A stretch of 64,000 bases of DNA from Lentimicrobiaceae bacterium (GTDB taxonomy: Bacteria > Bacteroidota > Bacteroidia > Bacteroidales > F082): assembly GCA_015061335.1 (NCBI GenBank), contig SUWT01000007.1:897-64896 (forward strand), written 5' to 3'. The translations under genes and the position numbers were made by a program. The notes beneath the pieces are model-generated. The model was not told the origin of the DNA. It saw only the letters and a program-made list of their open reading frames with translations, and did not search any database. Below are positions 3,827 to 38,463 of this stretch, one piece after another; position 1 is the first letter of the stretch, and every line of letters starts with the position of its first letter.

Positions 3827-5107
3827 ATGAATATAGATAACACCCTTTTCATAAATAACAGGAAGAACTTCGCTGAGAAGATGGCGAAAAATTCAATGGC
3901 TGTTTTCTGTGCCAACGAAGAGATGCCTCGTAATGGCGACCAGTTTTATCCATATCGCCAGCAGTCGGATTTCTTCTATCTCACAGGCATCGACCGCGAC
4001 TGCGCATACCTTATTATATACCCTGACCATCCGAATCCGGAGATGCGCGAGATTCTCTTCGTGGAACCTTATAGCGAATCGAAAGTGATTTGGCGCGGCG
4101 AGATGATTGACGCTAAAGAAGCCGCTGAAATATCAGGAGCCGCCAAGGTGATGTATAGCGACAAATTCAACTCGACACTTCAAGACCTCGCCCTTTCTTG
4201 CGAGACGATCTATCTCAACACTTACGAATATCCTCGTTATGAGTGTCCAGTCGTGACAATACAACAACGTTTCATCGATGAGATAAAAGCGAAATTCCCT
4301 CTGCATAAATTTGAACGCTCGGCACCTATATTAAATAAGCTCCGCATGGTTAAGTCGCAAGAGGAAATCGAAGTCACGAAACAAGCCTGTGACATCACGG
4401 CAGAAGCATTCCGTCGTTGCCTTAAAACAGTGAAACCGGAACGTTACGAATATCAGATACAAGCAGAGATAGAATACATATTCAAATATAACGGTGCAAA
4501 CGGTAATGCCTATCACCCGATAGTTGCTGCCGGTAAGAACGCCTGCTGTCTGCATTATTCGGCAAACAATAAAATTTTAAAAGACGGCGACCTAATTCTC
4601 TTCGACATAGGCTGCGAATTGAAGAACTATTCTTCTGACCTAAGCCGCACCATTCCTATCAACGGAAAATTCACTCAGAGACAGAAAGATTGTTATAACG
4701 CAGTCCTTCGTGTGATGAAAGAAATCACGAAGCTCTATAAACCGGGCGGAACCATCGACGAGATAAACAGGACGACATATAAGTTGATGGAAGAAGAGAT
4801 GATAAAACTCGGACTCTTCACTGCGGAAGATGTCGTTAATCAAGACCCGGATTTTCCATTGTATAGAAAATATCTCATGCACGGCATGGCGCATCATATC
4901 GGATTAGATGTTCACGACAGCGTTGATAAGTTCGAACCTTTCAAGCCGGGCATGATTCTCACCTGCGAGCCGGGAATCTACATCAGAGAAGAAGGCATCG
5001 GAATCAGGATCGAGAACGATTTGCTCATCACAGAAGGTGAACCGATAAACCTCTTTGAAGGACTTCCGATTGAGGTGGAGGAAATTGAGGGGTTAATGAG
5101 GAATTAG
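3827..5107 (+). CDS. Xaa-Pro aminopeptidase, M24B family (paralog 1)
   Basis: 426 aa. AMP_N-like N-terminus (YPYRQQSDFFYLTG) and M24 motifs DIGCE..SDLSRT, HGMAHHIGLDVHD, EPGIY, IRIEND. Confidence 0.85.
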   Translation: MNIDNTLFINNRKNFAEKMAKNSMAVFCANEEMPRNGDQFYPYRQQSDFFYLTGIDRDCAYLIIYPDHPNPEMREILFVEPYSESKVIWRGEMIDAKEAAEISGAAKVMYSDKFNSTLQDLALSCETIYLNTYEYPRYECPVVTIQQRFIDEIKAKFPLHKFERSAPILNKLRMVKSQEEIEVTKQACDITAEAFRRCLKTVKPERYEYQIQAEIEYIFKYNGANGNAYHPIVAAGKNACCLHYSANNKILKDGDLILFDIGCELKNYSSDLSRTIPINGKFTQRQKDCYNAVLRVMKEITKLYKPGGTIDEINRTTYKLMEEEMIKLGLFTAEDVVNQDPDFPLYRKYLMHGMAHHIGLDVHDSVDKFEPFKPGMILTCEPGIYIREEGIGIRIENDLLITEGEPINLFEGLPIEVEEIEGLMRN

Positions 5108-5251
5108 GAATTAGGAATTAGGAATTAGGAATGAGGAATGAGGAATGAGGAATGAGGAATTGTTGTAGAGACGCGTTAATGTAACCTGCAAAATAAAAAT
5201 ACATTGACACGTCTCAAATAATGAACAATTAACAATTGACAATTAATTATT
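5099..5251 (+). repeat. composite intergenic element, copy 1: (AGGAATT/AGGAATG)x9 - GTAGAGACG hairpin core - (AACAATT/GACAATT)x4
   Basis: Heptamer array at 5099-5161 (4x AGGAATT, 4x AGGAATG, 1x AGGAATT) contains the TAG stop of the upstream gene (5105-5107). Core arms are GAGACGCGTTAATGT (5168-5182) and ACATTGACACGTCTC (5201-5215), separated by an 18-nt loop. Second array at 5224-5251. Confidence 0.9.
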
Positions 5252-5294
5252 AACAAAATGGGCTAGTACTATTGTCCTTAAAAAAAGAAATACT

Positions 5295-6791: not shown

Positions 6792-7178
6792 AAAGGCATC
6801 TTTAAAATATTGTCGATCCTTCTTGTTTTATCAGCGATGTTTTCGTGTTCATCGCCAGATTTTTCTTTGCAAGGCAGATGGATTGTCGAGAGAGTGAATT
6901 TTGATTTTGATGAGAGAAGGAACACTCCAGAGATGATTTCTCAGTTTGGCAGTGAGGAAAGCAAGGATGAGCTGATATTTAAAAACGATAGTGTTGTATA
7001 TATCAGCATGTTGGATTATAATGGTGATTATCAGTATATGATGAATGAGAATTCAGAGATTTTTTTTAAGGATAAAGCAGATGTCAATAGGTTAGGATTT
7101 TTGAAAGACAATAAGATTTATTCTGAACATAATACAGCTATAGGGAAGATGAGGATCACCTTTATCAAAGAAGATTGA
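6789..7178 (+). CDS. small lipoprotein, unknown function
   Basis: From the internal ATG the protein starts MKGIFKILSILLVLSAMFSCSS (signal peptide plus lipobox Cys). The 6741 start would translate the repeat array. Confidence 0.55.
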   Translation: MKGIFKILSILLVLSAMFSCSSPDFSLQGRWIVERVNFDFDERRNTPEMISQFGSEESKDELIFKNDSVVYISMLDYNGDYQYMMNENSEIFFKDKADVNRLGFLKDNKIYSEHNTAIGKMRITFIKED

Positions 7179-7245
7179 GGATATTAAGACTAAAAGCGGA
7201 AGACGAAAACTCAAGAGTGTTATTTAGATATTTTCAGCTTTTGTT

Positions 7246-7893
7246 TCATTCCGGGATGTCATAATTACATCTTTTTTCATCACCTATTGTTGTTTCAGGA
7301 CCGTGACCGCAATAGCATACTGTCTCGTTGGGAAGTTCATAAAGTTTATTTTTTATGCTATCCACGAGTTCTGTATATGAGCCGCCTGGCAAATCGGTGC
7401 GTCCTACGCCTCTGCAAAAGAGAGTATCGCCTGTGATTAAGAAGCCTTGTGCTTTGTTATAGAAGCAGCAGCAACCTTTAGCGTGTCCAGGTGTGTGTAT
7501 TACCTCTAATATGTCATCTCCGATATTAATAATTTGCTTGTCGTATAAACTGATAGTTGGATATATTGTGTTTTCATCCTCATAATATATTCCAAATGCT
7601 CCAGCGTATGCGTAAGCGGTCTTGAAATAATCGTAACCATCAGGATGAGAAGCCAGGGGAATATCATATTTTTTGACGGTGGCGAAGTTGCCTAAGATAT
7701 GGTCGATATGAGCATGGGTATTTAAAATCATTATTGGTTTTAGATGATTATTGTCGATGAATTCAAATATGGCATTATCTTCTCTGCTATTGCAGTTTCC
7801 TGCATCAATAATGATACAATCGTTTGATTCGTTGTAAATTACAAAAGTATTTACGCTAATTGGGTTAAATACGAAGCATTTTATTTTCAACAT
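7246..7893 (-). CDS. MBL-fold metallo-hydrolase (glyoxalase II-like)
   Basis: 215 aa. THAHIDH metal motif, TPGHAKG, GDTLF. Confidence 0.8.
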   Translation of the reverse strand: MLKIKCFVFNPISVNTFVIYNESNDCIIIDAGNCNSREDNAIFEFIDNNHLKPIMILNTHAHIDHILGNFATVKKYDIPLASHPDGYDYFKTAYAYAGAFGIYYEDENTIYPTISLYDKQIINIGDDILEVIHTPGHAKGCCCFYNKAQGFLITGDTLFCRGVGRTDLPGGSYTELVDSIKNKLYELPNETVCYCGHGPETTIGDEKRCNYDIPE

Positions 7894-8132: not shown

Positions 8133-10835
8133 ATGGGAAAGATCAAAACAGAAGAGCAAGATTTATTTTCTGCGATGGAATCTAAAGATATTAATATCGA
8201 GGATATGCAATTAACTCATGATGTTAACTTTCATTCTGGCATTAAGGATGAGGAGGTGACAGATTCTAAGGATGTCGTTGCTAATAGTGGTATGCCTAAG
8301 AAAGAGTATAAGGTTTATTCTGTAGAGGAAGTCAAGAAGGCTGCTTCGGAGTATTTTAAAGGAGATCAGTTGGCTGCTGATGTATGGATGAATAAATATG
8401 CTTTGAAGGATAGTGATGGAAATATTTTTGAGTTGACTCCAGATGATATGCATCATCGTATAGCGTCGGAGATTGCTCGTATAGAAGAGAAGTATCCTAA
8501 TCCTATGTCGGAAGGGGAGATTTTTGATGTTTTGAAGGATTTCAAATATATAGTGCCTCAAGGCAGTCCTATGGCGGGAATAGGAAATAATTTTCAGATA
8601 TCATCATTATCGAATTGCTTTGTAATAGGAACTAATGGCAGTTCTGACTCATATGGTGCTATTATGAAGATAGATCAGGAGCAGGTACAGCTTATGAAGC
8701 GTCGTGGAGGTGTTGGTCATGATCTTTCTCATATTCGTCCTGCAGGAAGTCCTGTGAAGAATTGTGCTCTTACATCAACGGGAGTAGTGCCTTTCATGGA
8801 GCGTTATTCTAATTCTACCAAGGAGGTCGCACAAGATGGTAGAAGGGGAGCTTTGATGATGAGTATTAGTATTAATCACCCTGATTCTGAATCGTTTATT
8901 GATTCAAAGATGGAGCAAGGTCGTATCACTAATGCTAATGTATCGGTACGTATCAGTGATGCTTTTATGCAATCGGTCAAGGAGAACAAGCCATTTGTTC
9001 AAAAATATCCTATTGATTCGGTAAATCCTCAATTTACGAAAGAGATAGATGCTAAGAAGTTGTGGGACAAGATTATACATAATGCATGGCAGTCGGCGGA
9101 ACCTGGTGTTCTTTTCTGGGATACAATAACACGTGAGTCTATTCCTGATTGTTATGCTGACTTGGGTTTCAAGACATTAAGTACTAATCCTTGTGGAGAG
9201 ATACCTTTGTGTGCATATGATAGTTGTCGTCTTTTGGCGATAAATCTTTATAGTTATGTTGAAAATCCATTTACACCAAAGGCACGTTTCAATGCAGAAT
9301 TATTCTCCAGACATGTTGCCATAGCTCAAAGAATGATGGACGACATTATTGATCTTGAGATAGAGAAGATTGATGCCATTTTAGCCAAAGTATATTCTGA
9401 TCCTGAAGATGATAATGTGAAGAAATGTGAGGTGGATTTATGGAATAATATCCGTAAGAAGGCACTTCAAGGTCGTCGTACAGGTATTGGTATCACAGCT
9501 GAAGGAGATATGTTAGCTGCTTTAGGTAAGCGTTATGCTTCTGATGAAGCTATCGAATTCTCCACATCTGTACAGAAACTCCTTGCTTTTGAGGCATATA
9601 GATCATCAGTGAGACTTGCTAAGGAGCGTGGAGCTTTTGAGATCTATGACGCTAAACGTGAAGAGAATAATCCTTTTATCAACCGTCTTCGCGAGATGGA
9701 TGAGAGTTTCTATCAAGATATGGTAAAATATGGACGTCGTAATATTGCGATGTTGACCATAGCTCCTACAGGAACGGTAAGTATCTGTACACAAACCACT
9801 TCTGGTATAGAGCCTGTGTTTATGGTTTCGTACAAACGTCGTCGTAAAGTCAATCCTAACGATAAAAATGCCAAGGTGTCTTTCACTGATAATGATGGTA
9901 ATTCATTTGAAGAATATAATGTATTTCATCCAAAATTTATCACATGGCTGGAAGTAAACGGTTATGATGTTGAAGAGGTTAAGAATTATAACGATGAGCA
10001 ACTTCAAGAGATAATTAATAAGTCGCCGTATTACAAGGCAACAGCAAATGATATTGATTGGGTCAGCAAGGTGAAGATGCAGGGTGAGATGCAGAAGTGG
10101 GTTGACCATTCAATCAGTGTTACGGTCAATATTCCTGCTGAGACGACAGAAGAATTGGTAAGTCAGATATATCTGACGGCATGGGAATGTGGATGTAAAG
10201 GTATGACTATCTATCGTGATGGTTCCCGTACAGGAGTTCTTGTTTCTAATAAATCTAAAGAAGATAAGAAAGTTTCTGATAATGATATTATTGAAACGCA
10301 TTCACCGGTTCGTCCTAAGACATTGGAATGTGATGTTGTTCGTTTCCAGAATAATTATGAGAAATGGATCGCATTTGTTGGTAAGATTAATAACAAGCCA
10401 TACGAGATATTCCTAGGTCAACAGGATGACTTTTATTTGCCTCCGTTTGTTGAAACTGCATGGATTATTAAGAATAAGGATGAAAATAATAAGACGAGAT
10501 ATGATTTGCAGTATGTTGATAGACAAGGATTTAAAGTCACGATGGAAGGTTTGTCTCGTTCGTTCAACAAAGAATTCTGGAATTATGCTAAGTTAATATC
10601 TGGAATTTTACGCCACGGAATGCCAATCAATAGTGTTGTCAATTTGATTCAAAACTTGAATGTTGATGAAGATAATATCAACACATGGAAGAATGGTATT
10701 GCACGAGCTTTGAAACGTTATATTCCTGATGGTACGAAAGTTGATAAGGAAGTTTGTCCTACATGTGGAGATCCACTAGTATATGAAGATGGTTGCAAGC
10801 ATTGCAAGAACTGTGGTTATTCAAAATGTGGATGA
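8133..10835 (+). CDS. nrdJ: adenosylcobalamin-dependent (class II) ribonucleotide reductase
   Basis: 900 aa. RNR barrel motifs (SLSNCFV, NPCGEIPL, TIAPTGT) and a C-terminal Cys-rich tail CPTCGDPLVYEDGCKHCKNCG. The first ~53 aa are acidic and low-complexity; ATG 8292 is an alternative start. Confidence 0.85.
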   Translation: MGKIKTEEQDLFSAMESKDINIEDMQLTHDVNFHSGIKDEEVTDSKDVVANSGMPKKEYKVYSVEEVKKAASEYFKGDQLAADVWMNKYALKDSDGNIFELTPDDMHHRIASEIARIEEKYPNPMSEGEIFDVLKDFKYIVPQGSPMAGIGNNFQISSLSNCFVIGTNGSSDSYGAIMKIDQEQVQLMKRRGGVGHDLSHIRPAGSPVKNCALTSTGVVPFMERYSNSTKEVAQDGRRGALMMSISINHPDSESFIDSKMEQGRITNANVSVRISDAFMQSVKENKPFVQKYPIDSVNPQFTKEIDAKKLWDKIIHNAWQSAEPGVLFWDTITRESIPDCYADLGFKTLSTNPCGEIPLCAYDSCRLLAINLYSYVENPFTPKARFNAELFSRHVAIAQRMMDDIIDLEIEKIDAILAKVYSDPEDDNVKKCEVDLWNNIRKKALQGRRTGIGITAEGDMLAALGKRYASDEAIEFSTSVQKLLAFEAYRSSVRLAKERGAFEIYDAKREENNPFINRLREMDESFYQDMVKYGRRNIAMLTIAPTGTVSICTQTTSGIEPVFMVSYKRRRKVNPNDKNAKVSFTDNDGNSFEEYNVFHPKFITWLEVNGYDVEEVKNYNDEQLQEIINKSPYYKATANDIDWVSKVKMQGEMQKWVDHSISVTVNIPAETTEELVSQIYLTAWECGCKGMTIYRDGSRTGVLVSNKSKEDKKVSDNDIIETHSPVRPKTLECDVVRFQNNYEKWIAFVGKINNKPYEIFLGQQDDFYLPPFVETAWIIKNKDENNKTRYDLQYVDRQGFKVTMEGLSRSFNKEFWNYAKLISGILRHGMPINSVVNLIQNLNVDEDNINTWKNGIARALKRYIPDGTKVDKEVCPTCGDPLVYEDGCKHCKNCGYSKCG

Positions 10836-15963: not shown

Positions 15964-17031
15964 ATGAGACGCTTCATACAATTATCATCCATTTTAATAA
16001 TCTTAATATTTTTAGGAGGGTGTACATCAAATGCACTATATGATGATGTGTCCGACATCTCGGAAAAGAATATCGGCATACTTCATTCTAATGTTGAGAA
16101 GGATGTTATGAACGTTCTCTTTCCTCATGCCTCGGTTATGGAATATGACAAAGTGATTTCACTATTTCTTGATATGGAATCTAATCGTTGTGATGTTGCG
16201 GTGATGACGCAAGAAATCGCCGATATGGTTGTAAAACGTAATCAGGATTATGTGTTGCTTGGTTCTGTTGCAACGCCAGATGGCGAGGATTTTTTTGTTG
16301 TCGTACCACGTGAAAATATTGCGGTTGGCGAGGATATTTCAATCAAAGAGATATCTTTTTTCGAGAAGATAAAAGGCAGCCTTAGTCGTAACTTATTTAA
16401 TGAAAAGGCGATGCATCTGATATGGGGCGGTTTCAAGACTACCGTCATCATATTCTTCTTCGGCGCCATTTTAGCTATAATATTAGGTGCGTTCTTGGCG
16501 TATCTATCTATAAGTCATAAATGTCTTTGGCTATATAAACCTCTCAGTTGGTTTGTGATGACGATTCACGACATTCCGTCTGTCGTGCTGATGATGTTTT
16601 TCTTCTATGTCGTTTTTGCCGGAGCGATGAACGGAATATTCGTCTCAATAATAGCTCTCGGCATATATGCCTCTGGAGCGTTATATAAAGTATTTAAGAT
16701 ACATATCACGCAAGTCGGGAAAGGACAACTTGAGGCTGGACGTATGTTAGGGCTCAGCTCCTATAAATGTTATCGTTACATCATACTGCCTCAGGCTGTC
16801 AAGACGATGTTGCCTTTGGTGGGAGGCGAACTTAAGCTTTTGTTGAGAGCAACTTCCTACGCAGGTTACATAGCTCAGAAAGATCTGGTAAAAGCCGTCG
16901 ATGCCATAAGAGGATTCACCTACGATGCTTTCGTGCCTTTGTTGTTAGTATCGCTACTATATCTCCTCTTGTCATGGCTTATAGTGAAATCATTAGATTA
17001 TATATCAAAAAAAGTATTTAACAATGATTGA
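15964..17031 (+). CDS. ABC permease (polar amino acid HisM/GlnP-type TMD) with N-terminal lipoprotein signal and partial SBP_bac_3-like domain
   Basis: Starts MRRFIQLSSILIILIFLGGCTSN. About 130 aa are periplasmic-binding-like (CDVAVMTQEIADMVVKRNQDYVLLG). The TMD has an EAA-type loop GQLEAGRMLGLSSYKCYRYIILPQA. The TTG start at 15928 lies inside the terminator. Confidence 0.7.
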   Translation: MRRFIQLSSILIILIFLGGCTSNALYDDVSDISEKNIGILHSNVEKDVMNVLFPHASVMEYDKVISLFLDMESNRCDVAVMTQEIADMVVKRNQDYVLLGSVATPDGEDFFVVVPRENIAVGEDISIKEISFFEKIKGSLSRNLFNEKAMHLIWGGFKTTVIIFFFGAILAIILGAFLAYLSISHKCLWLYKPLSWFVMTIHDIPSVVLMMFFFYVVFAGAMNGIFVSIIALGIYASGALYKVFKIHITQVGKGQLEAGRMLGLSSYKCYRYIILPQAVKTMLPLVGGELKLLLRATSYAGYIAQKDLVKAVDAIRGFTYDAFVPLLLVSLLYLLLSWLIVKSLDYISKKVFNND

Positions 17032-18094
17032 ATTCTTACATATCAGTAAATCGTTTCAGGGTAAGGAGATTCTTCATGATGTGTCGTTGTCTGTCGAGGA
17101 AGGTCAGACGGTATGTATCATAGGAGCGTCAGGATGTGGTAAGACGACATTGTTACGTTGCATCGCAGGATTGGAAAGCAATCATCGCAGTCAGCTGTCG
17201 GCTGTCAGCTGTCAGCTAAAAGCTAAAATCGGTATGGTGTTCCAGAAATTCAATCTTTTTGAGAATATGAATGTATTGGATAATCTCACTTTTGCTCCTA
17301 TCCATGTTTTGAATATGAAGAAGGAAGATGCCGAACGTCTTGCGATGGAACATCTTAAGATGGTCGGCATGTCGGAGAGAGTCGCATATTATCCGAATCA
17401 GCTTTCGTCAGGACAGCAGCAGCGTGTCGCCATAGCACGATGTTTAGTGATGAAACCGGAGCTTCTGCTTCTCGACGAGCCGCTGTCATCTCTCGACCCT
17501 ATATCTCGCAGCGAGGTGATGGATGTCTTGCGTATAATAAAGAAAGATATAACAATGATAATGGTGTCGCACGACCTCGATGCCGTTGCTGAACTTGCAG
17601 ATCGCGTCATCTTTGTCAATAACGGCTCGATATGTGAAGAGGGAAAACCTGAGCAAATCTTGTCGTTACCTTTAAAAGAAGAGACACGGCATTTTATCAA
17701 CAGCCGGAAAAACCTTTTCTATACGATAAAGTCACATGACTTCGACCGTCCTGAACTTAATGCGCGTATCGAACACTATTGTAATAGATTCGGATTAGGC
17801 GGACAAGCGCATAGATTCGTACAGTTGGCAGTAGAAGAATCGCTTAATATCATACCTTTAGATAATAAAGTGGAACTCGTTTTGTCGAAGAAAAATGACG
17901 AGGTGAGAATGTCGTTGGATCTTACTTTTGATGATACAGGACATGATTGTCTTAATGAAGAAAATGTGTCGGAAGAGAATTTCTTAAGCCTCAATATCCT
18001 TCAAGGCTTATGCGATATAATAGAAGAGAAAGTAGAAAAAGATATGCGTCATATTCATCTTGAATTGAATCAAGAGAGACTGTTGTTGAGGTGA
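17024..18094 (+). CDS. ABC transporter ATP-binding protein with shortened beta-subdomain and C-terminal RsbW/GHKL-like (degenerate) domain
   Basis: Walker A GASGCGKT, Q-loop IGMVFQKF, signature LSSGQQQRV, Walker B LLLLDEP, H-loop VSHD. Only 17 aa lie between ..GLE and IGMVFQ, and they are encoded by a heptamer array. The C-terminal ~130 aa align to the kinase domain of the 19061 gene. Confidence 0.75.
   Translation: MIEFLHISKSFQGKEILHDVSLSVEEGQTVCIIGASGCGKTTLLRCIAGLESNHRSQLSAVSCQLKAKIGMVFQKFNLFENMNVLDNLTFAPIHVLNMKKEDAERLAMEHLKMVGMSERVAYYPNQLSSGQQQRVAIARCLVMKPELLLLDEPLSSLDPISRSEVMDVLRIIKKDITMIMVSHDLDAVAELADRVIFVNNGSICEEGKPEQILSLPLKEETRHFINSRKNLFYTIKSHDFDRPELNARIEHYCNRFGLGGQAHRFVQLAVEESLNIIPLDNKVELVLSKKNDEVRMSLDLTFDDTGHDCLNEENVSEENFLSLNILQGLCDIIEEKVEKDMRHIHLELNQERLLLR
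17192..17226 (+). repeat. intragenic heptamer array CAGCTGT CGGCTGT CAGCTGT CAGCTAA AAGCTAA
   Basis: Read directly from the sequence. It encodes ..QLSAVSCQLKAK.. inside the ATPase gene. The same unit family occurs at 22615-22677, 34395-34428 and 39438-39465. Confidence 0.9.
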
Positions 18095-21417: not shown

Positions 21418-21717
21418 ATGGAATTAAAGATTCGTCAAGAAAATGCAGCGACTGTTGTTGAGATTATAGGTCGCTTAGATACTATCACAGCCCCTGACTT
21501 GGATGCAGCTGTGAAACCGCTTATCGTCGATGGAGTGGAGCTTATCTTCGATTGCGAGGGATTAGAATATATCAGCAGTTCGGGATTGAGAGTCGTCATC
21601 GCGACGCACAAACAGATGATGACATGCTCCGGAAAACTTATAATACGTCATCTCAATAGAGAGGTGAAATCGGTTTTTGACCTCACAGGATTTTCAAATA
21701 TCCTGAATATCTGTTAA
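21418..21717 (+). CDS. STAS-domain anti-sigma-factor antagonist (RsbV/SpoIIAA-like)
   Basis: 99 aa. Contains the conserved phosphorylatable serine context LEYISSSGLRVVI. Confidence 0.85.
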   Translation: MELKIRQENAATVVEIIGRLDTITAPDLDAAVKPLIVDGVELIFDCEGLEYISSSGLRVVIATHKQMMTCSGKLIIRHLNREVKSVFDLTGFSNILNIC

Positions 21718-21883
21718 CGGGAACGGGGATTGCGGGGACGGGATTTAGTAGAGACACACGGACGTGTATCTTAAATTGAAAATTCAGGTAGAGACGCGTC
21801 AATGACACCTTAAAAAAATAAACAAGATGTCATTGACACGTCTCAACTTATTCCCCGTTCCCCGCTCCCCGTTCCCCGCTCCC
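21716..21883 (+). repeat. composite intergenic element, copy 2: inverted CCCCGTT-type arrays bracketing a truncated and a full GTAGAGACG hairpin core
   Basis: Left array (AACGGGG-type) at 21716-21746. Mini core GTAGAGACACACG-GA-CGTGTATCT at 21748-21771. Full core arms GAGACGCGTCAATGACA (21791-21807) and TGTCATTGACACGTCTC (21828-21844). Right array TTCCCCG TTCCCCG CTCCCCG TTCCCCG CTCCC at 21851-21883. Confidence 0.9.
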
Positions 21884-22761: not shown

Positions 22762-24483
22762 ATGTTAAGCGAACAAGAACAAATAAGAAGAAACTCCTTA
22801 AACGAGTTATACAAATTAGGTATCAATCCTTATCCACAGGCAGCTTTTGAAGTCAATGTCAACACTGCTCAGATTGCTGAAGAATTTGATGACAACGACT
22901 TGACAAAATTCGAGAACGTAAGCATAGGCGGTCGTATCATGAGCCGTCGTATCATGGGCGCAGCTTCGTTCTGCGAACTTCAAGATGCTCACGGTCGCGT
23001 ACAGATCTATATCAAACGTGACGAGATCTGTCCTGGCGAGGATAAGACTTTATATAACGTGGCTTTCAAACGTCTCTTAGACATCGGCGACTTCATCGGC
23101 GTTAAAGGTTTCGTCTTCCGCACACAAGCCGGCGAGGTGTCAATCCACGTAAAAGAATTGACAGTGCTCAGCAAGTCATTGCGTCCGCTTCCAATAGTGA
23201 AAGAGAAAGACGGCGTTGTCTATGACGCTTTCACAGATCCTGAACAACGCTATCGTATGCGTTACGTCGATTTGGTGGTTAACGAAAACGTGAAGAACAT
23301 CTTCATCGCTCGTACCAAAATCATCAACTCGATGCGTAACTTCTTCAACGAAAACGGATACTTAGAAGTAGAGACTCCGATATTACAATCTATCCCTGGC
23401 GGCGCTACAGCACGTCCTTTCATCACTCACCACAACGCTCTCGACATCCCGATGTATATGCGTATCGCTAACGAGCTTTACCTTAAACGTCTCATCGTAG
23501 GTGGTTTCGACGGAGTTTATGAGTTTTCACGTAACTTCCGTAACGAAGGTATGGACCGCACTCATAACCCAGAGTTCACATGTATGGAAATTTACGTCGC
23601 TTATAAAGACTACATCTGGATGATGGACTTCACAGAAAGAATGATAGAACGCGTCGTGACAGAAGTGTTCGGCACTGATACAGTGAAAGTCGGCGACAAT
23701 GAAATATGCTTCAAACGTCCTTTCAAACGTATCTCCATGATCGACTCTATCAAGGAAAAGACAGGCGTTGACATCACTGGCATGGACGAAGCTCAACTTC
23801 GTGAAGTATGTAAAAACCTCGATATTGAAATCGACGACACTATGGGTAAAGGCAAGTTGATTGACGAGATCTTCGGAGCAAAATGCGAAGGCACTTATAT
23901 CCAACCAACTTTCATCACCGACTATCCTGTCGAGATGTCGCCATTATGTAAACGTCACCGCGAGAATCCGGAACTCACAGAACGTTTCGAGTTGATGGTC
24001 AACGGCAAAGAACTCGCTAACGCATATACAGAGTTGAACGACCCTATCGACCAACGTGCTCGTTTCGAGGAACAGATGAAACTCTCGGAACGTGGCGACA
24101 ACGAAGCTATGTTCATCGACCAAGACTTCTTACGTGCTATGGAATATGGTATGCCTCCAACATCAGGTATGGGTATCGGCATCGACCGTCTCGTGATGTT
24201 GCTCACTGGTCAGCTCGCAATACAGGAAGTTCTTTTCTTCCCGACAATGCGTCCTGAAAAAGTCAAGAAAATAGCTACAGAACAAGACTTCATGGCAATC
24301 GGCGTCCCAGAGGTGTGGGCTGGCGTTTTGGTAAAAGCAGGTTATACTTCCATCGATATGATGAAGTCGGAGAAACCTGCTGCTCTCCGTGAGAAACTGA
24401 ACGGACTTCGTAAGAAAAACAAAATGGATGTCCCGGCTCTTCAGTTGGAGGAAGTGACACAATGGATTGAAGGTAACGAATAA
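22762..24483 (+). CDS. lysS: lysine--tRNA ligase (class II) with C-terminal extension
   Basis: 573 aa. OB-fold N-domain and class II motifs ([25 protein letters not shown]). About 70 extra aa at the C-terminus. Confidence 0.9.
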
Positions 24484-24556
24484 TTCATAATGCATAATTC
24501 ATAATTTGTAGAGACGTGTCAATGTGTTTTAATTGCATGATACATTGACGCGTTTC
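24481..24556 (+). repeat. composite intergenic element, copy 3: (TAATTCA/TAATGCA)x4 - GTAGAGACG hairpin core
   Basis: The array TAATTCA TAATGCA TAATTCA TAATTTG (24481-24508) begins with the lysS TAA stop. Core arms are GAGACGTGTCAATGT (24511-24525) and ACATTGACGCGTTTC (24542-24556), with a 16-nt loop. Confidence 0.9.
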
Positions 24557-24581
24557 CATGATAAAAAATAATAATCACAAT

Positions 24582-29169: not shown

Positions 29170-30792
29170 ATGAAAAGTATTACAAAGATAGCACTGGCAT
29201 TGTTAAGTGGTTTGTTGATTGCCTTTTCATGGCCGACATACGGTTTTACTCCTTTGATTTTCATAGCATTTGTTCCTTTGTTGTTTTTACAGGATCGTAT
29301 TGGAGATAAAAATAATAACGAGAAGGGAAGTGTATTCTGGCTTTCTTTCCTGACTTTCTTGGTATGGAATAGTATCACAACATGGTGGGTGTGGAATAGT
29401 ACTGCTGCAGGTGCGGTTGCTATGTTACTGCTAAATAGTGTTTTTATGGCTACAATATTTTGGCTCTATCATTTTACCAGAAAACACATCTTCTTCAATA
29501 AAAATGGTTTCTTCTTGTTGATATTTTTCTTTTTAGCTTTTGAATATCTTCATTATAACTGGCAGCTTAATTGGCCCTGGCTCTCATTGGGAAATGTATT
29601 TTCCAGTACACATAGCTGGATACAATGGTATGAGTTTACAGGTGTTGCGGGAGGAACAATATGGGTACTACTTTCAAATATCTTGGTGTATAAGGTTATC
29701 ATAGGACTTAAGACAAAAGACAAAAGACAAACGATTCTGTTAATGATATCACTTTTGGCATTACTTTTTATTCCATTAATAATAAGTAAGATAATGTATA
29801 ATACGTACGATACTCGTAAAGACTCTGATGTTGCTGAATCTAATGAGGTTGAAGTCGTTGTTGTTCAGCCAAATATAGATCCATATAATGAAGAGTTTTC
29901 TCTAACACCCGCAGAGATCCTATGGAGAAACTTTTCTCTTGCAGATACTTGTATCACTGACAAGACCCGTTTCGTAATAAGTCCAGAATCTTCTATACAT
30001 GAGAATATTTGGTTAGATAAGTTTGATAAATATTATTCAATTAAGAAGATAAGAGAATTCTCAGGAAAACATAATAACATAGCATATATCATAGGAGCCA
30101 GTACTTTCGGAATGGTGCCTGAAGGAGATGAAGATGATTTTGCTGCGCGAAAGTTCTATGATGCTGATGAGTATTATTATGCTTATAATACTGCCTTGAT
30201 GATCAGTGATAGTGCTGATATTCAGTATCATCAGAAATCAAGGCTTACTCCTGGAGTAGAGATGATGCCTTCATGGTGGTTTTTGCGACCAATACGTAAT
30301 TATGCTATTGATCTTGGGGGTATAGTAGGTACTCTTAAAAGAGAGAATGAGCCCACTGTTTTATCATTTGATGATTATAATATAGCTACTCTTATATGTT
30401 ATGAATCTGTTTTTGGCGACTATGTAACTCAATTTGCTAGAGAAGGAGCTAATCTGTTTTTCGTTATCACCAATGATGGCTGGTGGGGAGATACGGAGGG
30501 ACATAGACAACATCTTGAACTTTCCAAATTACGTGCTATTGAGAACCGACGCAGTATCGCTCGCTCGGCTAACACAGGTATCTCTGCGATTATCAATGAA
30601 AGAGGTGATATTGTAGAACAGACATCTTATTGGGAACCTGATGCTATATGCAGTAATATCACGGTAAATGACGAACTTACTTTCTATTCAAAACATGGAG
30701 ATTATCTCTATAGAGTAGCTACATTCCTCGCTATAATTACTTTATGTTTTAGTATTGTTTTATGTATTATGAACAAAAAATGGTACAATTAA
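29170..30792 (+). CDS. lnt: apolipoprotein N-acyltransferase
   Basis: 540 aa. N-terminal polytopic membrane domain plus a C-terminal CN-hydrolase domain (VVQPNIDPY, LICYESVF, TNDGWW). The ATG immediately follows the holB stop. Confidence 0.85.
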   Translation: MKSITKIALALLSGLLIAFSWPTYGFTPLIFIAFVPLLFLQDRIGDKNNNEKGSVFWLSFLTFLVWNSITTWWVWNSTAAGAVAMLLLNSVFMATIFWLYHFTRKHIFFNKNGFFLLIFFFLAFEYLHYNWQLNWPWLSLGNVFSSTHSWIQWYEFTGVAGGTIWVLLSNILVYKVIIGLKTKDKRQTILLMISLLALLFIPLIISKIMYNTYDTRKDSDVAESNEVEVVVVQPNIDPYNEEFSLTPAEILWRNFSLADTCITDKTRFVISPESSIHENIWLDKFDKYYSIKKIREFSGKHNNIAYIIGASTFGMVPEGDEDDFAARKFYDADEYYYAYNTALMISDSADIQYHQKSRLTPGVEMMPSWWFLRPIRNYAIDLGGIVGTLKRENEPTVLSFDDYNIATLICYESVFGDYVTQFAREGANLFFVITNDGWWGDTEGHRQHLELSKLRAIENRRSIARSANTGISAIINERGDIVEQTSYWEPDAICSNITVNDELTFYSKHGDYLYRVATFLAIITLCFSIVLCIMNKKWYN

Positions 30793-31733
30793 GTTTAGCA
30801 CCTTTTCAAGGGATCACCGATTCTGTTTATCGTAATTTATATCAGAATTATTTTTCTGGGATAGATAAATTTTATACCCCTTTCTTCACGGGAATTCATA
30901 AGGATAATAGTAGAAGTTTAAAGGGAGAAGAGATTGACATAAGCTGTAATGATGTCAATATTTTAACACCGCAGATACTTGGTAATGACGCAGATGAAAT
31001 TATTAGATTTGCAAATCAATGTCAGTCAATGGGTTATAAGGAGATAAATCTTAATATGGGATGTCCTTTCCCAAGAGTTGCCAATAAGGTGAGAGGTTGT
31101 GGTCTTATGGCTGAGCCTCAGAGGGTTAGAGAGATATTCGACAAGGTGTTTAATAATATCACAATAAAATTTAGTCTCAAATGCCGTCTTGGATATTTTA
31201 GAGATACTGAAATAAATGAATTAATAGAGAGTTTTAATACTTATCCGTTTAGCGAGATTATTATTCATCCTAGGATTGGTAAACAATTATATACAGGATG
31301 TGCCGATGTCGATAGATTTGCCGAAGTAGCAGCTCAAATCAAACGTCCGTTGGTTTATAATGGAGATATCTTTTCTGTTGGCGATTTCCAAAAGATTAGC
31401 GCTAAATTGCCACAGGTATCAATGTTTATGTTGGGAAGAGGTATTCTCACAAATCCTTTCCTGGCAGATGAGATAAAAGGATATATCGTGAAAGATGATG
31501 AGAAAATAGAGATACTTCATCGATTTGTAGTATCTCTATATCTCGAAAGATTACGTCATGCAGGAGGAAGCCCTAAAATTATAGGCTGTATGAAAGAATT
31601 GTGGTCATATCTGATGAATTCGTTTGAAGATCCTCAGAATATATGGCGTAAAATCAAGAAGATAAATAACTTGGATGTTTATGAAGAAACGGTAGAACGT
31701 ATCTTCAGAGATGAGAAACTTAAAGTTAATTAG
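30780..31733 (+). CDS. tRNA-dihydrouridine synthase family protein
   Basis: Starts LAPFQGITD. Contains NLNMGCP (catalytic Cys context) and a TIM-barrel pattern. The start is either 30762 or 30780; both overlap the lnt 3' end. Confidence 0.7.
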   Translation: MVQLSLAPFQGITDSVYRNLYQNYFSGIDKFYTPFFTGIHKDNSRSLKGEEIDISCNDVNILTPQILGNDADEIIRFANQCQSMGYKEINLNMGCPFPRVANKVRGCGLMAEPQRVREIFDKVFNNITIKFSLKCRLGYFRDTEINELIESFNTYPFSEIIIHPRIGKQLYTGCADVDRFAEVAAQIKRPLVYNGDIFSVGDFQKISAKLPQVSMFMLGRGILTNPFLADEIKGYIVKDDEKIEILHRFVVSLYLERLRHAGGSPKIIGCMKELWSYLMNSFEDPQNIWRKIKKINNLDVYEETVERIFRDEKLKVN

Positions 31734-31831
31734 GAATTAGGAATTAGGAATTAGGAATTATTGTAGAGACGTGTCAATTACACCGATGAAAATGATAATA
31801 TGTAATTGATGCGTCTGATTAATTAGGAATT
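31732..31831 (+). repeat. composite intergenic element, copy 4: (AGGAATT)x4 - GTAGAGACG hairpin core - AGGAATT
   Basis: The array at 31732-31759 overlaps the TAG stop (31731-31733). Core arms are GAGACGTGTCAATTACA (31766-31782) and TGTAATTGATGCGTCTG (31801-31817), with an 18-nt loop. A single AGGAATT unit lies at 31825-31831. Confidence 0.9.
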
Positions 31832-31841
31832 TATAATTATT

Positions 31842-32897
31842 ATGAAAAAGATTCTTGTAATTCGGTTTAGTTCTATAGGTGATATTGTTTTGACAACGCC
31901 TGTGATCCGTTGCTTGAAGAATCAACTTCAGGAGGCAGAGATTCATGTCCTGACAAAAAAGAAATTCAGCGGTCTTTATAAGACAAACCCACACATTGAT
32001 AAGGTGTATGAATTTGATTCTTCATTGAAAGACAATATTACAGAACTGAAGCTGGAGAATTACGATTATGTTGTTGATTTACAGAAGAACAAACGTAGTG
32101 TGAGAGTGACGCGAGCATTGTCATGCCCACATTCTTCATTTCCTAAACTTAATTTCAGAAAGTTTCTGCTTTCAACGTTTAAGATTAACATAATGCCTGA
32201 TATTCATATCGTTGACAGATATTTCAAAGCGGTTGAGAAATTGGGAGTTAAAAATGATTATCAAGGACTTGATTTCTTTATCTCAGAGAAAAACAATTAT
32301 AATTTAACAGAATTGCCCCAAGAATTTCATAATGGATATTATGCTTTTGTTATTGGCGGAACATATAAAACCAAAATTCTACCTGCCGTAAAAGTCGCTG
32401 AAGTCATACAAAAAATTAATAAACCTGTAGTACTTCTTGGTGGACCTGATGATGTGGAGAGAGCGGAAGAGATTCTTTCTTTAGTCAACAAGTCAACAAG
32501 TCAACAAGTCAACAAGTTGAGGGAGCAGGGAACAGGGAATAAGGAGCTTGATGATTTACAACTCTATTGCTCCAAAGTCCTTAATCTAGTCGGCAAGATA
32601 AACCTTGAGCGGTCGGCTTCTCTTGTAAAGAATGCGGAATCTGTCTTGACGAACGACACCGGTTTGATGCACATAGCGGCTGCTTTTCATAAGAATATAG
32701 TATCTGTCTGGGGAAATACCGTCCCTGAATTGGGAATGTATCCGTATCTTCCTAAAGAGCCGGAGAAATGTCATATTGTTGAATGTAAGTGTGTTAGATG
32801 TCGCCCGTGCAGCAAATTGGGATTTAAAGAATGTCCAAGGAAACATTTTAAATGTATGATGGATATTGACGTTAGGTTTATAGTTGATAGTTTATAG
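31842..32897 (+). CDS. glycosyltransferase family 9 (LPS heptosyltransferase-like) with repeat-encoded insertion
   Basis: 351 aa. GT9 pattern MKKILVIRFSSIGDIVLTTPVIRCLK ... VVLLGGPDDVERAEEI ... NDTGLMHIAAAF..VSVWGNT. Residues VNKSTSQQVNKLREQGTGNKE are encoded by tandem arrays. Confidence 0.8.
   Translation: MKKILVIRFSSIGDIVLTTPVIRCLKNQLQEAEIHVLTKKKFSGLYKTNPHIDKVYEFDSSLKDNITELKLENYDYVVDLQKNKRSVRVTRALSCPHSSFPKLNFRKFLLSTFKINIMPDIHIVDRYFKAVEKLGVKNDYQGLDFFISEKNNYNLTELPQEFHNGYYAFVIGGTYKTKILPAVKVAEVIQKINKPVVLLGGPDDVERAEEILSLVNKSTSQQVNKLREQGTGNKELDDLQLYCSKVLNLVGKINLERSASLVKNAESVLTNDTGLMHIAAAFHKNIVSVWGNTVPELGMYPYLPKEPEKCHIVECKCVRCRPCSKLGFKECPRKHFKCMMDIDVRFIVDSL
32484..32548 (+). repeat. intragenic arrays: (GTCAACAA)x4 perfect octamers, then GGGAGCA GGGAACA GGGAATA AGGAGCT heptamers
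   Basis: Four perfect 8-nt units at 32484-32515 (+GT). Heptamers at 32521-32548. Confidence 0.95.
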
Positions 32898-34466: not shown

Positions 34467-34605
34467 AAAATTGCGTTAGGGATTGAAGCGGCATCCTTGC
34501 TTCCTCTCTTTGCCAATAATTTATCTATGCCGAAGACGGCGGAAGTTGCCTATATTAATTAATAAAAGGTAATAAATGATGACTTTTGTTAGCAAGATTG
34601 TGAAA

Positions 34606-34655
34606 GTCAACAAGACAACAAGACAACAAGCTTGTTGTCCTGTTGTCTCGTTGTC
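34606..34655. repeat. 50-nt near-perfect palindrome made of (GACAACAA)x3 / (TTGTTGTC)x3, centred on AAGCTT
   Basis: 22 of 25 base pairs form, with no loop. It ends 6 nt from the rocD stop (34662-34664) and is a likely rocD terminator or stabiliser. Confidence 0.85.
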
Positions 34656-34661
34656 TTAATA

Positions 34662-35888
34662 TTAGAACGACAAAATTGTTTCTTTGATGATTTCTATCGC
34701 TGCGCGTAATTCTTCCTCAGTGATTACTAATGGAGGAGCGAAGCGGATGATATGTTGGTGTGTTGGTTTTGCCAAGACGCCGTTTTCTTTCATCTTCATA
34801 CAGACATCCCATGCTTCCTTACCGTCTTTAGGTTTGATGATGACTGCGTTGAGGAGACCTTTACCACGTACCAATTCAATCATCGGGCTGTCGATCTTTC
34901 TCATCTCTTCACGGAAGATATTACCGAGATATTCTGCTTTTTCCATGAGGTTTTCGTCTTTGATGACTTGAAGAGCAGCCATACTTACCTTAGCGGCGAT
35001 TGGGTTTCCGCCGAATGTTGAGCCGTGTTCTCCTGGTTTGATGTTCATCATGATGTAGTCGTCAGCCAATACTGCTGATACTGGAACTACGCCGCCGCTC
35101 AAAGCCTTACCTAATATTAATATGTCAGGGCGGACGTTTTCGTGGTCGCAAGCCAACATCTTACCTGTACGTGCGATACCGCTTTGTACTTCGTCGGCCA
35201 TGAACAAGACGTTGTATTTCTTACAGATGTCGTAGCATTTTTTGAGATAACCTTCATCTGGGACATAAACACCAGCTTCACCTTGGATAGGTTCTAACAA
35301 GAAACCTGCGATTTTGTGACCATGTTCTTTCAATACAGCTTCCAATGCGTCAGGATCGTTATAAGGAATACGGATGAAACCTGGTGTGAGAGGACCATAA
35401 TTCGCGTATGAGTCAGGGTCGTTCGACATGGTGATGATGGTGATGGTACGACCGTGGAAGTTGCCTTCGCAGCAGACTATCGTTACTTCGTCATTCGGTA
35501 TGCCTTTGCAGACGGTACCCCAACGACGTGCTAACTTAAGAGCTGTCTCGTCAGCCTCAGCACCGGTGTTCATAGGAAGAACTTTGTCGTAACCGAAATA
35601 TTCTGTGATGTATTTTTCCCAAACGCCGAGACTGTCGTTATAGAAAGCACGTGAACTTAAAGTGAGATTTTCAGCTTGCTCGCATAAAGCCTTAATGATA
35701 GCAGGATGACAGTGTCCTTGATTTACAGCGGAATAAGCTGATAAGAAATCGTAATATTCTTTTCCTTCAACATCCCATACCTTTGCGCCTTTACCTTTTG
35801 CTAAAACTACAGGAAGTGGATGGTAGTTGTGAGCGCCGTATTTAGCTTCCAACTCCATGGCTAATTGTGAAGTCATTTTTTCTGACAT
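34662..35888 (-). CDS. rocD: ornithine aminotransferase (class III PLP aminotransferase)
   Basis: 408 aa. N-terminus [55 protein letters not shown], and the PLP-Lys region ILGKALSGG. Confidence 0.85.
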
Positions 35889-38424: not shown

Positions 38425-38463
38425 AATTCCTAATTCCTAATTCCTCATTCCTAATTCCTAATT
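38425..38463 (-). repeat. (AGGAATT/AGGAATG)x5 array in purC sense orientation
   Basis: The plus strand reads AATTCCT AATTCCT AATTCCT CATTCCT AATTCCT AATT. On the minus strand the array directly follows the purC TAA stop. A single AGGAATGA unit supplies the TGA of the convergent gene (38391-38398). Confidence 0.9.

Follow-up and report, generated by a model that had tools for sequence, protein, structure and literature searches.

In a 64,000-nucleotide (nt) stretch of contig SUWT01000007.1 from a Lentimicrobiaceae bacterium (the window, meaning the whole stretch that was analyzed), four plus-strand genes end in a tandem array of 7-nt units, and each array is followed by a long, imperfect hairpin. 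What are these hairpins: transcription terminators, parts of a composite mobile element that includes the arrays, or dispersed repeats in their own right? An earlier description made from the letters of the window alone (the sequence-only reading) had treated array and hairpin as one composite family. Our analysis separates the two. We consider it quite probable that the hairpin is a GTAG-tagged repetitive extragenic palindrome (REP) whose copies a REP-associated tyrosine transposase (RAYT, also called TnpAREP) makes, moves, or homogenizes, and the arrays are a separate class of repeats.

The hairpin family and its distribution

A search of the window for the hairpin core (GTAGAGACGYGTCAAT, up to 3 mismatches) returned 7 matches against 0.71 expected, namely four 5′ arms on the plus strand (at 5165, 21788, 24508, and 31763) and three complementary 3′ arms. 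Consistently, a covariance model of 101 distinct hairpin copies (R1), run over the window with filters off, found exactly four elements, all scoring best on the plus strand (46 to 71 bits); the next-best match reached 11 bits, and nothing else rose above noise. The four loci named by the sequence-only reading, and their shared polarity with the gene upstream, are thereby confirmed. Rfam, searched at both gathering and permissive thresholds, placed no family on the four window hairpins. Folded as single-stranded DNA, the plus strand of each copy gave the expected hairpin (free energy of −9 to −16 kcal/mol, z-scores of −3.2 to −6.7). The copies, whose numbers also serve for the sites that they occupy, are as follows.

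5165..5216, plus strand: REP copy 1, with GTAG head, 5′ arm AGACGCGTTAATGT, 16-nt loop, and 3′ arm ACATTGACACGTCTC; the stem has one C·A mismatch and one U·G pair; R1 67.6 bits.
21788..21845, plus strand: REP copy 2, long-stem subtype with arms GTCAATGACA / TGTCATTGAC and a C·A mismatch at stem position 7; R1 71.2 bits.
24508..24557, plus strand: REP copy 3, with variant arms (5′ GACGTGTC, 3′ GACGCGTT) and U·G at position 7; R1 46.4 bits.
31763..31816, plus strand: REP copy 4, with variant arms (5′ GACGTGTC, 3′ GATGCGTC) and tandem U·G / G·U; R1 57.1 bits.

Across the family, the element is 50 to 60 nt long with a GC content of 33 to 42%, and it comprises a stem of 13 to 17 bp, an unpaired GTAG at the 5′ foot of that stem, and a loop of 16 to 20 nt (up to ~40 nt in a long-loop subtype). 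Of 170 detected copies, 155 have the head GTAGAGAC, all four window copies among them, and the GTAG head was used to set the orientation of each copy. The loop had been described as non-conserved, which does not hold, because 101 copies share the consensus ..ACCTnnAAAAATAAACA.. and the loop is thus partly conserved. Likewise, the differences between copies had been described as transitions yielding G-C, G-U, or C-A pairs; these pairings do occur, but they are structured rather than scattered. Stem position 7 is non-Watson-Crick in 98/101 copies and Watson-Crick in 3, with a combination that is neither Watson-Crick nor wobble in 84/101 and U·G in 14/101. The former is essentially C·A, because the dominant arms are 5′ ACGCGTCA and 3′ GACACGTC, a pair found in 82/134 copies. 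Covariation is seen in the inner stem, where pair 20-51 shows 27 double changes among the 101 copies and pair 21-50 shows 36. Position-frequency analysis detected no conserved sequence outside (T)GTAG...CGTCT(C), and it did not uphold a conserved 3′ extension (..ATTAGGAATT) that had been suspected from single copies.

Neither terminal inverted repeats nor target-site duplications were seen at the element borders, and none were seen in the comparison of site 3 with related species (see below). HUH-Y1 enzymes make no target-site duplications. Given that conserved flanks are lacking as well, a transposable element of the miniature inverted-repeat kind (MITE) is not supported. Thus, of the earlier suggestion that the family resembles REPs, bacterial interspersed mosaic elements (BIMEs), or MITEs more than ordinary terminators, the MITE part falls away, and a REP-type dispersed repeat stands by virtue of its GTAG head, its many copies in numerous genomes, and its link to a RAYT-like gene. 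A doublet of REPs (REPIN) was rejected as the repeating unit: only 16 pairs lie within 150 nt of each other among 161 oriented copies, and the window copies are all singlets. Nine pairs within 150 nt are arranged tail to tail, including those beside the RAYT-like gene, and direct clusters also occur, such as four REPs in tandem in L091 (L-numbers denote fetched loci, mostly ~8 kb). Variant forms comprise double-foot hairpins (GTAG...CTAC) in L039 and GTAC-ended hairpins in L006, L019, and L045.

The earlier expectation of further copies was borne out well beyond the window. When one genome per species was scanned for exact matches, the 16-nt core turned up in at least 111 stretches. Among the matches listed, ~98 of 111 come from ~29 species-level Bacteroidales metagenome-assembled genomes (MAGs) of ruminant and other herbivore guts, labeled Candidatus Limimorpha, "Lentimicrobiaceae" SIG104/106/107, or other Bacteroidales and derived from cattle, yak, buffalo, deer, and other fecal samples; ~13 lie in other phyla, and all of these lack the 3′ arm and are chance matches. 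Altogether, we detected 170 copies in ~100 loci of 8 kb from ~29 species, alongside the 4 copies in the 64-kb window, and all but a few lie outside long open reading frames (ORFs). Parts of three REP-bearing MAG loci are 80 to 83% identical to the window at the nucleotide level, which assigns the window to the same clade (Bacteroidales incertae sedis). A metagenome scan with the DNA polymerase III delta′ protein yielded only five loci, none near enough for comparison and none with the element.

Other GTAG-headed hairpins occur next to the family. One lies just upstream of copy 2:

21747..21770, plus strand: second, smaller GTAG-headed hairpin (GTAGAGACACACGGACGTGTATCT) of a different sub-family; at 11.3 bits it is not an R1 member.

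Similar mini-hairpins (GTAGAGACACACGGACGTGT..) are found just upstream of a REP in L033 (~1690) and L125/L126 (~9640), a third type of GTAG hairpin (GTAGAGACGTCACCCCTGTGGC..) occurs in L032 and L079, and the GTAGAGAC head is common to several REP sub-families.

The RAYT-like gene and the turnover of copies

Using E. coli RayT (K-12 record) as a tblastn query against all fetched loci, we obtained one weak match, an ORF (L090:6274-6582) flanked on either side by REPs. This ORF is truncated at its N terminus; its homologues measure 176 to 179 amino acids (aa). Full-length homologues (RAYT-like proteins P0001, P0002, and P0006; 177 to 179 aa) were found in L113, L114, and L115, which are independent metagenome contigs. 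At all three loci, a minus-strand REP copy lies ~70 nt upstream of the gene. On the downstream side, a complete plus-strand copy begins 5 to 10 nt past the stop codon in L113 and L115, followed in L113 by a second inverted copy, and L114 has nothing but GTAG and the first part of the 5′ arm, 5 nt past the stop codon. The truncated ORF in L090 likewise has a minus-strand copy upstream and a plus-strand copy right after its stop codon. At each of these four loci the GTAG heads are proximal to the gene. On these contigs, the gene is thus bracketed by inverted REPs in the way that is diagnostic of RAYT genes. A conserved leader separates the upstream REP from the start codon (TTTTAACATTTTTTAACTTTTTTATT...TTAATTTTGCAG; L113 58-131, L114 842-911, L115 760-831, L090 6210-6273), and it contains TAATTTTG, which we take to fit the Bacteroidetes −7 promoter consensus TAnnTTTG.

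The encoded proteins match NCBIfam NF047646 (REP_Tyr_transpos) with E-values of 1e-13 to 1e-14 (51 to 54 bits, profile positions 5-130 of 146). Three motifs are invariant and line up with the catalytic ones of E. coli RayT, namely PNHVH (the HUH motif), WQxRF(HDRIIRN), and YIxxN; in alignments A3 and A4, the invariant P-N-H-V-H, Y165, and N169 correspond in E. coli RayT to H-M-H, Y115, and N119. From the catalytic tyrosine onward, the proteins read YI[EQK][QN]N-[VI]xxW (e.g., YIEQN-VSNW), and E. coli RayT's PVKHG segment has no counterpart in them. An AlphaFold2 model (predicted local distance difference test score, 76.4; predicted template modeling [TM] score, 0.73) had as its top Foldseek match 4er8_A, the E. 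coli RAYT-REP complex (E 3.8e-7), and ranks 2 to 30 were all IS200/IS605 Y1 transposases; the TM-scores of the structural matches were modest (0.45 to 0.49). The protein family is very large and at E ≤1e-10 numbers 4,029 cluster representatives. Several metagenomes contain full-length genes whose HUH and tyrosine motifs are intact, at a mutual identity of 57 to 65%, and several homologues are fragments of 99 to 133 aa. On the strength of its modeled fold, catalytic motifs, and genomic context, the protein would work like a RAYT.

We compared the four window sites with syntenic regions in ten loci fetched from related species. The eight loci compared (L121-L126, L130, and L131) are 75 to 77% identical to the window in nucleotides, with a LysS amino-acid identity of 97 to 98%; L127/L128 are more distant, and L129 was left out, since its synteny is lost downstream of lysS. 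At sites 3 and 4, no REP is present in any of the eight related species. At site 2, L121-L126 carry one to three REPs. A further variable site with conserved flanks, at window positions 34595-34680, has no REP in the window (inverted octamer arrays only), one in L051, and an inverted pair in L080 and L095. Presence/absence differences, which the sequence-only reading had proposed to look for between strains, are thus seen between related species (~75% identity) at all three of these places (sites 3, 4, and 34595-34680), and the direction of change, insertion or deletion, is inferred. Moreover, species with only ~75% identity in syntenic DNA or genes share an identical 16-nt core at sites that are not orthologous, which argues for continuing copying or homogenization rather than decay of ancient insertions. 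In the window, an array of three octamers (AAGACAAC) with its inverted complement forms a 20-bp hairpin between convergent genes (34604-34656); it was called terminator-like and occupies the very position at which relatives have one or two REPs.

These observations can be joined in a REP/RAYT model. The REP, a non-autonomous element of 50 to 60 nt, would fold on single-stranded DNA into a stem of 13 to 17 bp with one fixed mismatch, and the RAYT, an HUH-Y1 single-strand nuclease, would make, move, or homogenize its copies, with the RAYT gene itself bracketed by inverted REPs. The GTAG head together with the imperfect stem may be what the enzyme recognizes. In E. coli, RAYT cleavage is lost when the mismatches of the REP stem are repaired so that it is fully paired (PMC3733652), and the stem mismatch described here fits a feature recognized at the DNA level. 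Copies would survive mainly just past stop codons in the sense orientation, where they would be transcribed within 3′ untranslated regions (UTRs) and would leave promoters undisturbed, and they may secondarily serve as mRNA 3′ hairpins.

Gene ends, tandem arrays, and other explanations

Genomic context was evaluated for the 115 copies that have called ORFs as neighbors to the left and right. Seventy-two copies are in sense with both flanking genes and 15 run antisense (p=4e-10); convergent genes flank 22, and divergent genes flank 6. As supposed at the outset, orientation relative to genes is therefore not random (72 sense versus 15 antisense), and the distribution of 87 co-directional, 22 convergent, and 6 divergent contexts differs from the intergenic baseline of 308, 72, and 85, respectively (chi-square p=0.0013). 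Sense copies start at a median of 28.5 nt past the stop codon and end 96 nt ahead of the next start codon. This pattern agrees with the one published for REPs (PMC3733652). When strands were assigned by residual GC skew, 44/71 copies fell on the inferred leading strand (p=0.057), with 13 versus 11 where gene direction is uninformative. Single-stranded non-template DNA serving as the substrate is a speculative source of the sense bias. Under a crude ORF caller, 13 copies lay "inside ORFs," several of them being artifacts of spurious or over-extended ORFs. Two sense REPs (L075 2934-2989 and L065 5245-5293) are located within long ORFs whose frame is open throughout, and an octamer array accompanies one of the two; these REPs may be in-frame intragenic REPs, as in other REP families, or further artifacts of crude ORF calls.

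Such placement also favors an explanation in which the hairpin would be mainly an RNA element (terminator-like, an exonuclease barrier, or a processing site), repeated by selection rather than by mobility. The median distance of 28.5 nt past stops, the 72:15 co-orientation, the avoidance of divergent regions, and the covariation of the inner stem are all in its favor, as is the view that REPs elsewhere are transcribed and act on mRNA (PMC3733652). The 3′ flanks point the other way. At the four window sites, no T-run follows the stem, in agreement with the sequence-only reading, and no terminator-like site was called there; positions +2 to +8 past the stem are 28 to 57% A and 27 to 55% T without a run. 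Canonical terminators, composed of a GC-rich hairpin and a T-run, lie downstream of the REP in L024, L044, L091, L104, and L005/L042. Since these terminators lie 3′ of the REP, the REP is a 3′ UTR passenger and not a terminator, and an intrinsic terminator is rejected as the primary explanation. In addition, a sense transcript of the dominant variant would bear the destabilizing C·A mismatch, whereas the antisense strand would have G·U, the reverse of what selection for RNA stability would produce; this argues against selection for RNA stem stability. Nor would convergent selection on terminators explain an identical core at non-orthologous sites in ~29 species, the unpaired GTAG, or the link to a RAYT-like gene. 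We therefore hold a primarily RNA-based origin to be unlikely, and an RNA role can still hold as a secondary, co-opted function.

The arrays, which the sequence-only reading had made part of the element, require separate treatment. Tandem Repeats Finder was used to delineate arrays in the window, and period 7 dominated its output. The genes upstream of the four hairpins are ORFs 3827-5107 (aminopeptidase P), 21418-21717 (STAS), 22762-24483 (LysS), and 30762-31733 (Dus), and the arrays next to the hairpins are as follows.

5095..5160, plus strand: AGGAATT/AGGAATG (AGGAATK) array, 9.4 units; spans the aminopeptidase P stop codon and adjoins copy 1, outside the REP.
5220..5256, plus strand: AATTAAC-type array, 5.3 units; downstream of copy 1.
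21716..21746, plus strand: degenerate AACGGGG-type array; begins at the STAS stop codon and is the inverted complement of 21851-21883.
21851..21883, plus strand: TTCCCCG/CCCCGTT array, 4.7 units; downstream of copy 2.
24480..24506, plus strand: AATTCAT/AATGCAT (ATAATTC) array, 3.9 units; begins at the LysS stop codon and abuts the GTAG of copy 3.
31728..31760, plus strand: AGGAATT (AATTAGG) array, 4.7 units; spans the Dus stop codon.

An extra AGGAATT unit lies 3′ of copy 4 (31823-31829). The claim that the arrays begin at stop codons is correct, as all four upstream plus-strand stops are contained in the array or lie no more than 3 nt from where it starts. Hairpin-free arrays of 7- or 8-nt units are found at ~18 further places in the window, two of them within ORFs (17190 and 32483).

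Could array, hairpin, and (at some sites) second array move together as one composite MITE- or BIME-like mobile element? Using a strict criterion (at least 3 units of 7 or 8 nt, at least 85% lag identity, 32-nt upstream window), we found an upstream array in 47/150 copies (31%), a downstream array in 18, any array in 39%, and none in 92 (61%). The upstream rate is ~5-fold higher than that of random intergenic windows (6.5%), and upstream arrays abut GTAG at a distance of 0 to 1 nt in 35/47 cases, commonly as ..AATT|GTAG. At site 2 of L121-L124, moreover, a module of a GAAAATT/GAAAGTT array plus a REP is repeated two to three times in tandem with a period of ~97 nt. These are the points in favor of a composite element. 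Against it, most copies are array-free, array units vary from copy to copy, and no flank is conserved. REP-free gene 3′ ends carry arrays almost as often (53/260, 20%) as REP-bearing ones do (36/125, 29%; odds ratio 1.58, p=0.07). Arrays are rarer at gene 5′ ends (10%), and their density is 2.39 per kb of intergenic DNA versus 0.086 per kb of coding DNA.

Orthologous sites separate arrays from hairpins as well. At site 3, seven of the eight relatives have the same AATTCAT/AATGCAT array as the window (2.5 to 5 units) without a REP, and one has a different unit; the distant L127/L128 have neither array nor REP. Because relatives share the unit and lack the REP, the array at site 3 would be older than the REP. 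At site 4, AATTCAT-type units occur in 7/8 relatives and no array in 1/8, compared with AGGAATT plus REP in the window. These comparisons suggest that arrays predate REPs, persist at a site, and change their unit and length fast. Finally, the REPs that flank the RAYT-like gene need no arrays, and terminal inverted repeats and target-site duplications were not seen. The arrays are thus a separate, genome-wide class of repeats and not part of the REP. Composite movement as one unit is very improbable, and the composite architecture put forward by the sequence-only reading was not borne out, with 61% of copies free of arrays, no conserved flank, and relatives carrying the array alone.

In the REP/RAYT model, the 7/8-nt arrays would be separate, fast-evolving tandem repeats that also gather at gene 3′ ends; REPs would often insert at, or be retained at, the 3′ border of AT-rich arrays, and array-plus-REP modules could then be co-duplicated. 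A tighter, mechanistic coupling is conceivable though doubtful: arrays could act as landing pads for REPs, or nicking and repair at REP borders could seed arrays. In the landing-pad version, insertion would be preferred at the 3′ edge of AT-rich arrays (..AATT|GTAG), at single-stranded or slipped-strand sites. If true, self-propagating array-plus-REP modules would remodel gene 3′ ends and stop codons and could even give rise to coding inserts that stay in frame. A parallel may lie in the work of Elhai et al. in 2008, who reportedly described small dispersed repeats within heptamer arrays of cyanobacteria; we do not use it as evidence.

The least credible explanation is that the hairpins are relics, i.e., host-protein (gyrase- or IHF-like) sites or products of recombination or gene conversion, without an active transposase and with the RAYT-like ORFs as decayed passengers, for although the gene in L090 is truncated at its N terminus and several homologues are fragments, full-length genes keep catalytic residues invariant at 57 to 65% identity, which points to purifying selection, and conservation of the REP core far exceeds that of neutral intergenic DNA.

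Several observations weigh against the REP/RAYT explanation that we favor. The element is an atypical REP (33 to 42% GC, 50 to 60 nt, 16- to 20-nt loop), and no fixed target sequence was found 5′ of GTAG, where there is a weak A/T preference (AATT in 11%, T at −1 in 61%). No RAYT gene lies within the 64-kb window, the RAYT-like genes described here being on other contigs. Their products score 51 to 54 bits against a curated cut-off of 80 for NF047646 and 15 to 19 bits against a threshold of 23 for Pfam Y1_Tnp (PF01797), and in alignment with E. coli RayT they lack the motif NP(L/V)(R/K)xG. RAYT action alone leaves the sense-strand bias unexplained. Furthermore, the species compared are ~75% identical, so that absences could in principle be deletions, and no clean insertion junction was obtained between very close strains, as the LysS matches at 96 to 98% amino-acid identity were different species.

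Tandem arrays and other repeats also touch neighboring genes. In the ORF of a GT9 heptosyltransferase (31842-32897), an in-frame insert at 32483-32539 consists of 4.4 units of AGTCAACA and 2.9 units of AGGGAAC; the corresponding ORFs of L121-L126 carry other array units at the same codon position, with protein lengths of 351 to 384 aa, and the insert is apparently a hypervariable, array-derived peptide linker. In an ABC ATPase ORF (17024-18094), four units of GTCAGCT and two of AGCTAAA (17190-17228) lie in frame between LLRCIAGLE and IGMVFQKFNLFE. An AATTCCT array (the reverse complement of AGGAATT; 38425-38463, 5.6 units) is located between convergent genes, and the orthologous site in L080 has a different, degenerate array of GTTCTGA/GTTTCTT type. 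A further repeated element of ~83 nt (GCGTTAGGGATTGGAGCGGCATCC...) matches the Rfam Flavo-1 RNA (RF01705) at 42.6 bits versus a gathering score of 42. Full copies of this Flavo-1-like element are present in L121-L126 (~9447-9529) and L080 (~7330-7410), and the window has a truncated copy only (34472-34503). Its 24-nt core occurs in 26/129 fetched loci, and 9/23 copies lie within 123 nt of a REP. At window positions 34521-34613 (minus strand), a 30-codon remnant (..LLTKVIIYYLLLINIGNFRRLRHR*) of a small membrane-protein gene, which is intact in L080 (92 aa, 6976-7254), abuts the Flavo-1-like fragment, and the gene would thus have been truncated next to repeat DNA. Together, REPs, dense arrays, and Flavo-1-like elements would explain much of the intergenic DNA of these Bacteroidales MAGs, and they are likely causes of assembly breaks and mis-called gene ends.

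Comparison with known systems

The sequence-only reading knew of no formal description of this family. That holds for the exact sequence family, according to Rfam and literature searches, but not for its kind, as GTAG REPs and RAYT/TnpAREP are well described, including subclasses from Bacteroidetes (PMC2817692, PMC3733652, PMC6006769). Like the GTAG REP/RAYT "REPtron" (PMC2817692, PMC3733652, Messing 2012 [4er8]), the family has an unpaired GTAG at the 5′ end, an imperfect hairpin with a conserved stem imperfection, many extragenic copies in unidirectional or convergent regions after genes, and an HUH-tyrosine gene within inverted copies. It differs in being AT-rich and 50 to 60 nt long with a partly conserved loop of 16 to 20 nt, whereas known REPs are GC-rich, 20 to 40 nt long, and have a small loop; in occurring mostly as single copies with a strong sense-strand bias; and in its Bacteroidales host. 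The associated protein differs as well, being below the NCBIfam equivalog cut-off and without NP(L/V)(R/K)xG, which Nunvar et al. 2010 gave as RAYT-specific (PMC2817692). Reports of GTAG REPs cover Proteobacteria, Cyanobacteria, Chloroflexi, and the PVC group, and Bacteroidetes were unlisted in the 2013 survey (PMC3733652).

The closest relatives may be two TnpAY1 subclasses of Bacteroidetes (PMC6006769), since by length and motifs the RAYT-like protein fits their neighborhood. Subclass 2.4 has the motifs NH[IFV]H, WQ, and YIxNNP, and its REPs are long or of the double-foot form (GTAG...CTAC); subclass 2.6 comprises proteins of ~179 aa with NH[LIV]H, WQ, and YIH[QN]NP, whose genes are flanked by weak, "atypical" hairpins without GT[AG]G that have copies elsewhere in the genome. 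The host, the length of ~179 aa (2.6), the motifs NH[IVL]H, WQ, and YIx[QN]N, and double-foot forms (2.4) are shared. In contrast, the tyrosine motif here ends in N[VI] rather than NP, and the hairpins carry a clear GTAG, which those of subclass 2.6 lack. With REPINs (PMC3116915) and BIMEs the family shares some inverted doublets (the 9 tail-to-tail pairs) and direct clusters, but most copies are singlets, and the repeating unit is the hairpin itself rather than a REP doublet.

The arrays resemble the short tandemly repeated repetitive sequences (STRRs) of cyanobacteria and the TAACTGA arrays (PMC4679880): like these, they are mainly intergenic 7-nt tandems with recurring unit families, and their copy number varies between relatives. 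Heptamer arrays had already been noted in a few Bacteroidetes (PMC4679880), and the long simple sequence repeats (LSSRs) of Mrazek et al. 2007, as cited in that paper, are 7-nt repeats. Unlike heptamer LSSRs and STRRs, the arrays described here reach 2.4 per kb of intergenic DNA, include many unit families and 8-nt units, start at stop codons, form long hairpins as inverted pairs, and occur in frame within genes; their link to REPs is positional only.

REP/RAYT work has dealt almost wholly with Proteobacteria, and the new family would supply a REP/RAYT pair for a large group of uncultured Bacteroidales of herbivore guts; its fixed stem mismatch and strong bias toward the sense strand are open to biochemistry and 3′-end mapping. 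Published REP-finder descriptors specify a loop of 2 to 5 nt and a stem GC content of at least 50% (PMC6006769). Finders based on such descriptors (GC-rich stem, small loop) would pass over AT-rich, large-loop REPs like those of the window.

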